A stretch of 5,166 nucleotides of DNA from NCBI RefSeq assembly GCF_055900595.2, contig NZ_JBVWEU010000008.1; one strand, 5' to 3'. Made by a program: the position numbers and the translations under genes. Origin of the DNA: a plasmid. Under the pieces are notes generated by a model. That model saw only the letters and a list, made by a program, of their open reading frames with translations, made no database searches and was not told the origin of the DNA. Below, piece after piece: positions 488 to 4,842 of the stretch (the stretch's first letter is position 1; every line of letters starts with the position of its first letter).

Positions 488-1414
488 TCAGAATCCCATA
501 GAAAATCCACGTGACGGTGATTTAACCCGTTCAGGTGCAGTTCGGTTCTGTCTGCTCACTCTGTCTCTCATGTCAAAGCCATGCTCCCGCGCAACATCAT
601 GTTGCAGCCTTCTGACCAGTTCATGTTGCTTAACCGGAGTGTCCAGCCATTCCCTGATGTCATGCCCGACCGTTCGCGCCTGTTCAAGATGGCGGGAATA
701 GTCCGGTTCAGACCGTTTTTGCATGATGTCATGACGCTGGGCATCATCAAGCCGTCCGGCAGCTTCAAAACCCAGATGCACTTCGGGACGTCGTTCAATG
801 CCCTGTTCTTTCAGCGTCCGGCAGTCAATGAAGCCCCTTTCAAAGCCATGCTTTCTCATATGTTCGTTGTGCTTCACCTCCCAGCGTTTTCGCAATTCCC
901 GCAACTGCTCTTTTTGCTGAGTGAGAGTCAGGCTTCCGGAATCCTTTTTCGCACCTCCCCGCTCGGGATACCTGGCGTTATAGCGCCGGAAATACTGTTC
1001 CGGTGTACGTTCAATGCCATCATTCACACGCTGACTCATCATGATATGCGCATGAGGCTGTTCGCCGCCGTCAATGCTCGCTTTCGGATTGTGAATGGCA
1101 AAACTCCAGGCGTGCCGTTCGCCAGCTTCCTGACGTACAAAATCCTGCACCAGTTCAAGGCGCTGTTCCGGTGTCAGTTCACGGGGTAATGCAATTTCAA
1201 GTTCCCTATAGGTCGAACCGTTCGCACGTTCAAACTGGTCAGCCGCCTGCCAGAAATGGGAAGGATTATCCCTGGCCCATTCCGGCATGTTTCCGTGTGC
1301 GGAATATTCCAAATCCTGACGGTCGCGGTATTTCTCTTTGCGCTCGATGTAATCGGCGTGGTTTGCAGCCTGCCCCTTGCCACCAAATTTAACGCTGAGG
1401 TGATAGGTTGCCAC
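488..1414 (-). CDS. mobA: MOBQ-family relaxase MobA (relaxase domain only, 308 aa)
   Basis: 308-aa ORF with GTG start and GAGGG about 8 nt upstream. N-terminus MATYHLSVKF...ADYIERKEKY (catalytic Tyr region), ERANG, EIALPREL and HAHIMMSQRVNDGIER (histidine-triad motif) match my recollection of RSF1010 MobA-type relaxases. No primase-like C-terminal extension. Confidence 0.85.
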   Translation of the reverse strand: MATYHLSVKFGGKGQAANHADYIERKEKYRDRQDLEYSAHGNMPEWARDNPSHFWQAADQFERANGSTYRELEIALPRELTPEQRLELVQDFVRQEAGERHAWSFAIHNPKASIDGGEQPHAHIMMSQRVNDGIERTPEQYFRRYNARYPERGGAKKDSGSLTLTQQKEQLRELRKRWEVKHNEHMRKHGFERGFIDCRTLKEQGIERRPEVHLGFEAAGRLDDAQRHDIMQKRSEPDYSRHLEQARTVGHDIREWLDTPVKQHELVRRLQHDVAREHGFDMRDRVSRQNRTAPERVKSPSRGFSMGF

Positions 1415-2015: not shown

Positions 2016-2075
2016 TGGTGCTTCCTCGCTCATTCGCTCGCTACGCTCGGTCATGAGACTGCGGCGAGCACTACC
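2016..2075. other. ssi: Primosome assembly site (PriA-dependent ssi/pas), pBR322-like
   Basis: CTTCCTCGCTCATTCGCTCGCTACGCTCGGTCATGAGACTGCGGCGAGC is strongly similar to the ColE1/pBR322 sequence TTCCTCGCTCACTGACTCGCTGCGCTCGGTCGTTCGGCTGCGGCGAGCGG (recalled from common cloning-vector sequence), which corresponds to the n'-pas region. ColE2 plasmids are reported to carry ssi signals. Confidence 0.45.
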
Positions 2076-2139
2076 ACCACAATCACGCGGAAAGCCGCGC
2101 CATTGCAGGGCTGAACGGGGAAAAACGGCAAAAAACCTG

Positions 2140-2197
2140 CTGCTCAAAAAGACGCCAGAAAGGCGCTGTTATCTGATATAGGCTTATTTGGTCTACT
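2140..2197 (-). other. ori: ColE2-type origin of replication (Rep-binding / primer RNA site)
   Basis: Directly 3' of rep and overlapping its stop codon. The rep-sense strand reads TAGACCAAATAAGCCTATATCAGATAACAGCGCCTTTCTGGCGTCTTTTTGAGCAGC, which matches my recollection of the ColE2-P9 minimal origin (AGACCAGATAAGCC..TATCAGATAACAGCGCC..TTTGGCG). Confidence 0.6.
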
Positions 2198-3107
2198 CTA
2201 CGAGACCTCGTTTTTTCAGTTGGTAATACCAGGCGCGACTGATCCCTAATGCCTCCCACGGTTTCAGCGTGCGTGCAGATGTAGCTACTGTGCTGCGCTT
2301 AGACTTAGAACCGCCCTTGCGACCGCGTGCAGCCTGAATTTCTGGCGTGTGCGTATCAGCCACATACTGTGCGAAAGTTTCCGGCGTGAAGTTCCTGTGC
2401 GTGTATTTCGCAATGCTCTTGCCAATAGCCCGACATTCAGCCAGTGAAAGCGGAACGGGAAGCGATGCATTGTACATTTCGACACGCTGGATCACCGCTT
2501 CAAGCCACTGTGAGAACGCTGGCCAGCCCTGACGAATCGCCCTGTAAGCCCATTTGCGCGTCATTTCGAACAGGTGGCAGTTTCGCCCCATCCCGTAATG
2601 TTTATCGATGCTACGACGCTCTGAGGCGCTCAAATCGAGATAATCAGCCAGTTCATCGAGGGTATAGGCTTCCTCGCGCCACTCCATCACCAGCCATTCC
2701 AGGTGGAACGGATTTTTGCAAATCAGGCCGCTGTAGTTCACATCCGCACAAAGTTTCTCACACAGCGAACGTTCAACCGCTGCGGCATATTTCAGCGCCT
2801 TAACCGAGGCATCAGGCGCGGTTCTCACGGCGATGTTGAGTGCGTAGAGCAGGTGAGCGTGTCCGTTCACAGGATTTTTAACGGTGATGTTCGGCGCGGG
2901 AGCGTTCCGGTCGCTCCAGTCAATCGCAGCCCCCTCGCGGTCAACGTCAAAAACCAGCCAGAACTGTGCATGAGGCTGGTTCTGCTGGATATACCGTGCA
3001 AGAAGCGCGCGCCCTTTGCCGGAGATACGAAGGCCGAAAGCGAGATCATCCGTGTGATAGGGACGGTGGGGTAAATTTTCTTCGAAGTATTGAAGCGCGG
3101 CGCTCAT
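2193..3107 (-). CDS. rep: ColE2-type replication initiator Rep (primase-like, 304 aa)
   Basis: 304-aa ORF, ATG at 3107..3105 with AAGGA SD 10 nt upstream. Sequence (MSAALQYFEENLPHRPY..., FDVDREGAAIDWSDRNAPAPNITVKNPVNGHAHLLYAL, GKSIAKYTHR) matches my memory of the ColE2/ColE3 Rep family. Origin-like sequence lies immediately downstream, as in ColE2. Confidence 0.85.
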   Translation of the reverse strand: MSAALQYFEENLPHRPYHTDDLAFGLRISGKGRALLARYIQQNQPHAQFWLVFDVDREGAAIDWSDRNAPAPNITVKNPVNGHAHLLYALNIAVRTAPDASVKALKYAAAVERSLCEKLCADVNYSGLICKNPFHLEWLVMEWREEAYTLDELADYLDLSASERRSIDKHYGMGRNCHLFEMTRKWAYRAIRQGWPAFSQWLEAVIQRVEMYNASLPVPLSLAECRAIGKSIAKYTHRNFTPETFAQYVADTHTPEIQAARGRKGGSKSKRSTVATSARTLKPWEALGISRAWYYQLKKRGLVE

Positions 3108-3124
3108 GTGTTACGATTCCTTCC

Positions 3125-3203
3125 AGGTTATCGACCGACATCGCCCCTGTATTTTCGTGAAAGTCTTGGCGGATAGACACGAATTTCAGGGGCGTTTGTT
3201 TTT
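3125..3203 (+). ncRNA. Putative antisense RNA (RNAI-like) complementary to the rep mRNA leader
   Basis: Bipartite hairpin: outer stem CGCCCCTG (3142-3149) / CAGGGGCG (3187-3194), inner stem TTCGTG (3154-3159) / CACGAA (3178-3183), followed by TTTGTTTTT (3195-3203) on the + strand only. Candidate + promoter TTGAAG (3090-3095), 16-nt spacer, TGT-TACGAT (3109-3117) overlaps the rep start. The 5' end is a guess. Confidence 0.4.
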
Positions 3204-3262: not shown

Positions 3263-3290
3263 ATTTACCATAACTCCCGTTGTACGTACC
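3263..3290 (-). other. cer-like XerC/XerD recombination core (multimer resolution site)
   Basis: Minus strand reads GGTACGTACAA-CGGGAG-TTATGGTAAAT. XerD arm is identical to the ColE1 cer XerD site (TTATGGTAAAT); XerC arm is 10/11 to cer GGTGCGTACAA. Central region is 6 bp. Confidence 0.65.
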
Positions 3291-3691: not shown

Positions 3692-3713
3692 AAAAAACCC
3701 CACAAAAGTGGGG
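3692..3713 (-). terminator. Rho-independent terminator (minus strand) at the backbone/AT-rich boundary
   Basis: Minus strand: CCCCAC-TTTT-GTGGGG followed by TTTTTT. Confidence 0.5.
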
Positions 3714-3940
3714 AACCAAGAGAAACAACAATTACAGGTTGTTGGTTGTGTTCGAACAACGATGAAGTAGCTACGCTAAATAATAATTACCGTACAGGCC
3801 CTACATATTCAACACTAAATTTAAGATCCTGACGAAGGATTTATAAATGCACGAAAACACATAGACAGACAAATTCACTAAATTCATACACAAAAACAAG
3901 TGTAGTTTTCTAAGTAAATTAGATTCGACAACCAATTAGT

Positions 3941-3949
3941 TTATCCACA
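3941..3949 (+). promoter_or_regulatory. DnaA box consensus (TTATCCACA)
   Basis: Exact 9-mer TTATCCACA inside the A/C-rich tract. Only one copy seen, so function is unproven. Confidence 0.3.
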
Positions 3950-4097
3950 TCGCATTCCACTCTTGCTACACCAATCACATTTCTTGATATGTAATAGCAG
4001 AAAAAATAAAACCAGACACCAATAGACCAAAAAACAAACATTCAACAAGAAACATTTTGAACAATATCACAAAACTGTCACAACCATCATCAGACTT

Positions 4098-4126
4098 TTG
4101 AAAAAAACTGGTTGCTGTTTTATAAA
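4098..4126 (+). promoter_or_regulatory. Candidate sigma70 promoter (TTGAAA, 17-nt spacer, TATAAA)
   Basis: -35 TTGAAA at 4098-4103, 17-nt spacer, -10 TATAAA at 4121-4126. About 105 nt upstream of the + strand terminator at 4212-4236. Confidence 0.35.
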
Positions 4127-4132
4127 AGCGAC

Positions 4133-4237
4133 TGTAACAACCTCCACTCTATAGTTCCATTAGTTTAAAGTGTCACACAAACTGAGCATCCATTTGTTTT
4201 CCTTACTTTTGCCCCTGTATTCCAAGGGGTTTTTTTA
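4133..4237 (+). ncRNA. Candidate small RNA, module 1 (promoter to terminator, about 105 nt, no ORF)
   Basis: Predicted start about 7 nt after the -10 at 4121-4126. Contains ACACAAAC, then TTTTCCTTAC (4197-4206), then terminator hairpin. No ATG in the interval. Confidence 0.3.
4212..4236 (+). terminator. Rho-independent terminator (plus strand), module 1
   Basis: CCCCT (4212-4216) / AGGGG (4225-4229) stem with 8-nt loop, followed by TTTTTTT (4230-4236). Preceded by TCCTTAC at 4200-4206. Confidence 0.5.
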
Positions 4238-4467
4238 TAACTTAAAGATTAGCACACCACACAAAAACAATAAAAAAAAACGACAAGTTATACAATAAAA
4301 CCAGTACCATCCATACAGCTAATTACATATAAATACTATTAAACCATCTGGACATTAAAAATAAACTCTTATAACATAAAATTAATGCGGTTCCGGTACC
4401 ATATGTCAGGGATAATGTGCAAATGGAGGTATCGGAACTGCATTTCAGTTCATTATTAATTAATGAC

Positions 4468-4494
4468 AAAAAAAAACCTCTGCGAGCGCAGAGG
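4468..4494 (-). terminator. Rho-independent terminator (minus strand), module 3
   Basis: Minus strand: CCTCTGC-GCTC-GCAGAGG followed by 9 T (+ strand A-run 4468-4476). Preceded on the minus strand by TCCTTAC (+ coordinates 4503..4497). Confidence 0.65.
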
Positions 4495-4526
4495 GGGTAA
4501 GGAATGTTCCCGGTCATAATATGTCG
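4468..4526 (-). ncRNA. Candidate small RNA, module 3 (about 60 nt)
   Basis: Runs from the candidate minus-strand promoter (4533-4561) to the terminator at 4468-4494. Contains ATTCCTTACCCCC immediately 5' of the hairpin. Confidence 0.3.
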
Positions 4527-4532
4527 ATAGTG

Positions 4533-4561
4533 TTTATATACATACAGAACAAGAACAACAA
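4533..4561 (-). promoter_or_regulatory. Candidate sigma70 promoter on minus strand (TTGTTG, 17-nt spacer, TATAAA)
   Basis: Minus strand -35 TTGTTG (+ 4561..4556), 17-nt spacer, -10 TATAAA (+ 4538..4533). Directs transcription toward the 4468-4494 terminator. Confidence 0.35.
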
Positions 4562-4713
4562 CCAGCCAACTAATAAATATTTTATTTTTTAGAGCTGAAA
4601 CCTTAAAGCTCACTTCCATTCCATACATTGTTATAAACCTTATGTTGAAAACTGAAAGTAAGTACGGCAGACTTATTAAGTTGCGTGCAGTCTTTTCACG
4701 TTATACAAACAAG

Positions 4714-4770
4714 AACACCTGCGAAGTTATTTCTCCTTACATATCCCCCTATGCCAACGGGGGATTTTTT
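4714..4770 (+). ncRNA. Candidate small RNA, module 2 / possible leader of the 69-aa ORF
   Basis: Weak promoter TTGCGT (4681-4686), 15-nt spacer, TATACA (4702-4707). Transcript would contain TTCTCCTTAC (4731-4740), then ATAT, then the 4743-4770 hairpin and T-run. Start is uncertain. Confidence 0.25.
4743..4770 (+). terminator. Rho-independent terminator (plus strand), module 2
   Basis: ATCCCCC (4743-4749) / GGGGGAT (4759-4765) stem with 9-nt loop, followed by T-run to 4770. Preceded by TCCTTAC at 4734-4740. Confidence 0.6.
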
Positions 4771-4842
4771 CTGGTTCACTAACGCATAAATAATAGTGAC
4801 ACCCTATCATTCACAAACCGTGATAATATAAGGATTATCATC

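Follow-up and report, generated by a model that had tools for sequence, protein, structure and literature searches.

A ColE2-type origin and a pas-like element with a covarying single-strand structure next to rep in a Col156/MOBQ4 plasmid

The region downstream of rep in this plasmid very probably serves vegetative replication as a module of the ColE2 type (class C theta), in which the leading strand would be primed by Rep and a pas element would load the PriA primosome. The window, by which we mean the whole stretch of 5166 bp that was analysed, was found to be a complete small plasmid of E. coli that belongs to the Col156/MOBQ4 type and is mobilizable. Plasmids of the ColE1, ColE2 and F types are known to combine an origin with a pas, as the sequence-only reading of this region had already said for the ColE2 type, and current understanding is unchanged by our results. 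The one mildly new result is a model of the pas family, backed by covariation, that has a GCGNAGC apex. The assignment is of use mainly as an annotation anchor: for a Col156/MOBQ4 plasmid that is very common in E. coli, it would fix the origin, the direction of replication and the strand that is the lagging-strand template. The features on which the description is based are as follows.

488-1414, minus strand: MobA/MobL relaxase gene (Pfam MobA_MobL)
2018-2071, minus strand: pas-like element of 54 nt in ssiA sense, GTGCTCGCCGCAG...GAGCGAGGAAGCAC, recognised by homology, conservation and covariation
2072-2142, minus strand: variable spacer of low identity between the origin/terminator and the pas-like element
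2143-2166, minus strand: terminator-like hairpin for rep, GCGCC-TTTCT-GGCGT (2166 to 2152) and then CTTTTTGAGC
2162-2194, minus strand: ColE2-type origin of 33 bp, with a 31/33 match to the ColE2-P9 minimal origin
2175-2169, minus strand: right repeat CAGATAA, exact
2174-2172, minus strand: predicted primer template AGA, inside the right repeat
2190-2184, minus strand: left repeat CAAATAA, with one substitution relative to CAGATAA
2193-3107, minus strand: rep, encoding a ColE2-family initiator/primase of 304 aa, from the listing of open reading frames; TAG stop at 2195-2193

The origin reads AGACCAAATAAGCCTATATCAGATAACAGCGCC on the minus strand from 2194 to 2162, and the minimal origin of ColE2-P9 reads aaaatgagaccagataagccttatcagataacagcgcc (PMC3163176, supplement). 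The right repeat and the AGATAACAGCGCC block are identical in the two, whereas the window differs from ColE2-P9 by the one substitution in its left repeat and by one 1-nt insertion between the repeats. The score of this alignment was 54, against a best score of 19 elsewhere in the window and a maximum of 29 over 200 shuffles. Since the match starts inside the rep TAG, the origin overlaps with the stop codon. Both the presence of a ColE2-type origin abutting rep and this overlap had been proposed from the sequence and are borne out. The span of 2140-2197 that had been proposed for the origin does contain it, but the origin proper is limited to 33 bp and the proposed span also takes in the terminator-like hairpin of rep.

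Origins of the ColE2 type are composed of two CAGATAA repeats, specificity sites and a primer block (PMC3632715). In the window, a segment of about 32 bp with the repeats and the primer-containing block was found directly past rep. The arrangement is the same as in ColE2-P9 and ColE3-CA38, where a Rep with Replicase and PriCT_1 domains is followed by an origin that abuts the rep stop and by a terminator after the origin. Among six ColE2-type plasmids the identity of the origin was found to be 0.94 in the right half and 0.54 in the left half. This distribution fits a putative division of the origin into a left half for specificity and a right half that is catalytic. The terminator-like hairpin of rep, which has CAGCGCC in common with the right end of the origin, is also well conserved (mean identity 0.91 among ColE2-type plasmids), and the spacer beyond it is variable, with a mean pairwise identity of 0.71 and a minimum of 0.45 over 2078-2142.

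A second terminator-like hairpin was noticed on the plus strand at 2190-2207 (GGTCTACTCTACGAGACC and then TCGTTTTTTC), where it covers the rep stop as well as the origin's left edge. The two terminators, this one and that of rep at 2166-2152, are convergent, and transcripts from the mob side would therefore run through the pas and the origin before they end. When genome contigs were scanned with the origin pattern, two matches were obtained and no new variants were added. One is located at 3874-4052 of a 4289-bp contig of Acinetobacter idrijaensis MII (contig_139; L008), where the origin core of 33 nt and the pas core of 60 nt are identical to the window with the same spacing. The other, on a 360-bp contig of Moraxella sp. 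(L007), matches the degenerate origin pattern only. Both are non-enterobacterial assemblies, and the matches would represent either contamination or an unexpectedly broad distribution.

The initiator was found to have the domains that are characteristic of ColE2-type (class C theta) replicons, namely a Replicase domain (an AEP-like primase; PF03090, 4.7e-43) and PriCT_1 (PF08708, 1.7e-4, above its cutoff) with a C-terminal origin-binding domain. For the C-terminal domain, PDB 3VW4 (chains named Rep) was matched at 1.2e-56. The colicin-E2 plasmid pIGMS5, in which the origin agrees with that of ColE2-P9 at 38/38 positions, encodes a Rep with 76% identity to that of the window. In comparison with the P9-type protein, the window Rep contains a 9-aa insertion in the C-terminal DNA-binding domain at residues ~245-255 (2345-2377), and it is accompanied by the 1-nt insertion found between the two repeats of the origin (origin 2176-2180). 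Their joint occurrence would fit a coupled change of specificity in Rep and origin, as far as can be judged from the sequences. We take this pairing of insertions to resemble the ColE3-type specificity class. A second group of plasmids (pP, pKPHS4 and pRHB24-C10_4) was observed to have a Rep of 339 aa and an origin whose left half differs.

Two further observations concern rep. An internal fragment of ~450 bp (2347-2800) occurs unannotated in many large plasmids (90-340 kb), to which it is 91-100% identical; the matching records number 1155, of which ~405 are typed as conjugative. These copies look like a remnant of a ColE2-type rep that was taken up, without origin or pas, by a widespread large-plasmid backbone. 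In addition, the Rfam family PK-repBA gave a sub-threshold match at 3072-3195 on the minus strand (26.2 bits, where the gathering score is 45; E = 0.011), which spans the rep start and its 5' leader. The rep 5' leader in ColE2 plasmids is a known place of antisense RNA control of Rep translation.

The Rep protein of ColE2 synthesises the primer ppApGpA at a fixed position within the origin, which is then extended by DNA polymerase I (PMC9743546, PMC4538821). In the window origin, AGA was found on the rep-sense strand only, at 2194-2192 and 2174-2172, and does not occur on the complementary strand. From this we infer the primer site and the direction of replication, where the leading strand would leave rep behind and grow toward lower coordinates, with displacement of the parental minus strand. 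The direction reported by Takechi & Itoh in 1995 is said to agree with a leading strand that leaves rep.

The pas-like element has a conserved core at 2016-2072, within which the structured part is located at 2018-2071. It lies 90-146 bp past the 33-bp origin, and the distance of 65-125 bp given in the sequence-only reading also holds when it is counted from 2140. A blastn comparison aligned 2020-2069 of the window with 1360-1311 of ColE1 (NC_001371) at 88% identity over 50 nt (E ~1e-12), and this pas-like stretch is the only segment that the window and ColE1 have in common. The complete element of 54 nt was observed to be 78-85% identical to the ColE1, pBR322-like and IncF variants. The suggestion that the element is pBR322-like is upheld by this homology in the same sense and at a similar distance, by its conservation and by its compensatory changes.

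In NC_001371, RNAI is located by Rfam at 645-749 on the minus strand. The start points of RNA II and RNA I lie 555 nt and 445 nt, respectively, upstream of the ColE1 origin. These distances would place the ColE1 origin near 1194, so that the homologous segment (1311-1360) lies at about +117 to +166 in the RNA II sense. The window element is found at +102 to +158 from the predicted primer start (AGA at 2174) on the minus strand. It is therefore on the displaced strand and within ~100-200 nt of the leading-strand start, where the ColE2 direction is the one predicted above, and its strand and spacing would match the requirements of a lagging-strand primosome site. Its position, its strand and the pBR322 sequence suggest that the ColE1 homolog is the mapped ssiA site. 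In ColE1, n'-pas/ssiA is located just past the origin, where it is exposed by extension by DNA polymerase I and serves in lagging-strand priming (PMC3167613, PMC3640518).

The window element resembles ColE1/pBR322 ssiA (n'-pas, rriA) in its strand relative to the fork, its distance from the leading-strand start, its helices and its GCGNAGC apex. The two differ in the closing pairs, which are GT...AC in the window but CC...GG in ColE1, and this change makes the AAGCGG of ColE1 read AAGCAC in the window. The internal helix is CTCAT/ATGAG in the window, whereas ColE1 uses a register of its own. The leading strand of ColE1-type plasmids is primed by RNA II and that of the window by Rep. Unlike in pBR322, no DnaA box was found next to the pas or in the spacer in a scan of the window; the only perfect DnaA box in the window is located at 3941-3949, and this number is at chance level.

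The pas part of the query was found to match at least 5000 plasmid records with E values of 1e-8 to 1e-10 against 7.3 Gb, which is far beyond chance. In large IncF-type plasmids the element is located either next to an initiator of the RepB type or downstream of sopAB, and it was also observed at an IncFII-like RepA replicon. The homologs at the RepB-type replicon or past sopAB have the same GT...AC closers and the same CACCAGGG tail as the window. In all seven of the enterobacterial-type ColE2 loci that were checked, pIGMS5 included, the element is located on the rep-sense strand ~87-90 nt past the origin. The version in pIGMS5 has an 8-nt deletion, by which it is shorter than that of the window and has lost the internal helix. 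At the locus of an Edwardsiella ColE2-type plasmid the element is absent altogether. Single-strand initiation (ssi) sequences of F, R100, R6K and ColE2 are attributed in PMC6856555 to Nomura et al. 1991 (Gene 108:15), and the ColE2 member of this set may be the element described here, of which the colicin-E2 plasmid pIGMS5 carries the shorter version.

When six ColE2-type plasmids were compared, the element stood out as a conserved island with an identity of 0.92, against 0.71 in the spacer and 0.58 downstream. A metagenome scan with the anchors GCTCGCCGCAG and GAGCGAGGAAGC was pooled with the plasmid loci to give 149 instances. Eighty-two are located after a ColE1-type origin in the same sense and 27 after a ColE2-type origin at 98-108 nt, with 26/27 at 107-108. 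A further 31 were observed in other or unrecognised contexts, and nine have too little upstream sequence to be classified.

The element can be drawn as a closing helix, in which 2071-2064 pairs with 2029-2026 and 2021-2018, and an internal helix that leads to the apical mini-hairpin GCGTAGC at 2046-2040. The two positions just outside the fixed anchors were found to pair in 107/108 distinct sequences, where the outer closing combination is CC/GG in 71, GT/AC in 29, AC/GT in three, GC/GC in two and a G.T wobble in two. In an alignment of 77 variants the closing helix is 100% paired with both sides changing (CG/GC/AU/UG and CG/UA/UG), its inner half being invariant by design as it was fixed in the search pattern. 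The internal pair is CG in 66/77 and UA in 11/77, and the hairpin-closing pair is GC in 73/77 and AU in 4/77. The observed covariation score was reached by 0/500 shuffles and the slid-register controls all collapsed, although the 77 variants fall into a few lineages and the covariation events are therefore few. Covariation was seen in four pairs, which is what a conserved single-strand structure of an ssiA-type site would require. The G.T wobble cells (n=7) fit the ssiA-sense strand only, since they become A.C mismatches on the other strand, and this points to the ssiA-sense strand as the strand that folds.

The CTCAT/ATGAG extension of the internal helix is lineage-specific and paired in 13/77 variants. 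We considered this window-type extension and the IncF-specific extension of the apical stem as general features of the family and rejected both, as each is paired in 13/77 only.

At the apex, the variable residue of GCGNAGC was observed to be T in 41 sequences, A in 13, C in 10 and G in five, and ACGNAGT variants also occur. The GCGNAGC sequence is the extraordinarily stable DNA mini-hairpin of Kimoto and Hirao, which is poorly bound by SSB and whose GNA-type stability is missed by nearest-neighbour parameters (PMC13037366). The folding energy of the element as single-stranded DNA was found to be no better than that of shuffled sequences (z = -0.06 for the window element and +0.92 for the ColE1 homolog, with both strands at -0.16 to +1.05), probably because standard parameters miss the stability of the mini-hairpin. 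The ssiA/ssiB of RSF1010 and the G4-type signals are also structured initiation signals with GNA-type mini-hairpins (PMC13037366), but these are read directly by DnaG or the RepB' primase and not by PriA, and they have no sequence homology to the window element.

It is possible, though we suggest it only tentatively, that the pas elements of ColE1, ColE2 and IncF are one horizontally shared single-stranded DNA module, in which the SSB-resistant d(GCGNAGC) and the covarying closing helix are constant and the mini-hairpin, rather than a hexamer such as AAGCGG, marks the site for PriA. If this is true, the change from AAGCGG to AAGCAC in the window is half of a compensated base pair. A 54-nt pas model common to ColE1-, ColE2- and IncF-type replicons may aid the design of minimal ColE1/ColE2 vectors and studies of site recognition by PriA.

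In the mechanism that we propose, Rep would bind the 33-bp origin and make ppApGpA with the AGA in the right-hand CAGATAA repeat as template. DNA polymerase I would extend this primer toward lower coordinates, forming a D-loop from which the parental minus strand is displaced. About 100-160 nt into the displaced strand the 54-nt element (2071 to 2018) would fold into its closing helix, internal helix and apical GCGTAGC. By homology with ColE1/pBR322 ssiA (n'-pas), this fold would be the entry site for PriA and then for PriB, DnaT, DnaB-DnaC and DnaG; the PriA dependence of the element is a part of the scheme that we infer from this likeness. Lagging-strand synthesis would begin at the element and proceed from it as far back as the origin, so that replication would be unidirectional.

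The element is probably accessory, with a role in efficiency, and not essential, because the 32-bp ColE2 origin replicates without it and pIGMS5 tolerates the 8-nt deletion. The 32-bp origin was reported to replicate with Rep supplied in trans, and a 470-bp ColE2 fragment is described in the same source as supporting normal growth and colonies (PMC3163176). That the pas accounts for the advantage of this 'robust' 470-bp fragment of the DIAL paper compared with the 32-bp origin was considered and rejected. About 400 nt of the fragment run inside rep to just before the stop, and by the stated length the remaining ~70 nt should end before the pas.

Other explanations of the conserved segment were weighed against a replication role. 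It is unlikely that the segment is an inert fossil, without a role, of recombination with a ColE1- or IncF-type plasmid. In favour of a fossil, the segment is the only stretch in common with ColE1, is dispensable for a minimal ColE2 replicon and tolerates an 8-nt deletion inside it in pIGMS5. However, the element has kept an identity of 0.92 while its flanks diverged to 0.58-0.71, and compensatory changes keep its helices paired. Its strand and its distance from the origin are nearly fixed in the 27 ColE2-type instances, and it is found beside at least three further replicon contexts. We regard as very unlikely a role in conjugation, in which the element would prime the complementary strand in the recipient after MOBQ-mediated transfer and not the vegetative lagging strand. 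The plasmid is mobilizable, with a MobA_MobL relaxase and MOBQ typing, and an RSF1010-like oriT repeat with GTGCG|C at ~1440-1476 is located within 550 nt of the element. Single-strand initiation sites are also known in the leading regions of conjugative plasmids. With the orientation and nick position of RSF1010/R1162, the oriT repeat and the nick consensus read 5' to 3' along the plus strand, and it is this strand that would be transferred. In contrast, the ssiA sense of the element, as indicated by the G.T wobbles, is on the minus strand, which would not be transferred. In plasmids of the ColE1 and ColE2 types whose MOB systems are unrelated, the position of the element was moreover observed to track the origin and not oriT.

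The covariation cannot tell RNA from single-stranded DNA, and the element is in the RNA II sense in ColE1 and in the rep mRNA sense in the window. The structure could in this case act as RNA, for instance by terminating or processing a read-through rep/mob transcript or by forming a small RNA on it, but we consider this highly improbable. The element is located downstream of the rep terminator-like hairpin and has no T-run of its own, and a search of Rfam over the origin/pas region gave no family for it even at E<=1. The IncF contexts show no consistent transcript orientation, and GCGNAGC is specifically a DNA mini-hairpin. A site for lagging-strand priming of vegetative replication remains the reading that we prefer.

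Bases 1990-2260 and 2000-2800 of the window were found to be 100% identical to NZ_CP023898.1, an E. coli plasmid of 5162 bp that is typed as MOBQ and mobilizable, and to many other records of 5.16 kb. The plasmid sequence is already present many times in databases, and its overall layout is that of the MOBQ42/Col156 ColE2-like group of PMC6856555. The RSF1010/R1162-like oriT was observed at 1440-1480 on the plus strand, between the divergent mobA and the open reading frame at 1591-1989, as GTTTCTC...GAGAAAC and then ATATAAGTGCG|CTTCC. The product of the 1591-1989 frame gave no Pfam match and is longer than the MobC of under 100 aa described for MOBQ4 plasmids.

A XerC/XerD-type recombination core was noticed on the minus strand at 3263-3290 (GGTACGTACAA-CGGGAG-TTATGGTAAAT), in which the central region is 6 nt and not 8 nt. 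It has one mismatch to the cer arms. The pattern with a 6-nt centre is expected by chance to have no occurrence in the window, and the pattern with an 8-nt spacer gave no match in the window. A cer-like site has been reported for MOBQ42 plasmids (PMC6856555), and the core at 3263-3290 fits this report. Finally, an AT-rich block was observed at 3700-4840 (34% GC against 52% elsewhere), which is without a convincing open reading frame and contains several motifs of a hairpin and T-run, for example near 4211-4236, 4478-4500 and 4741-4770.
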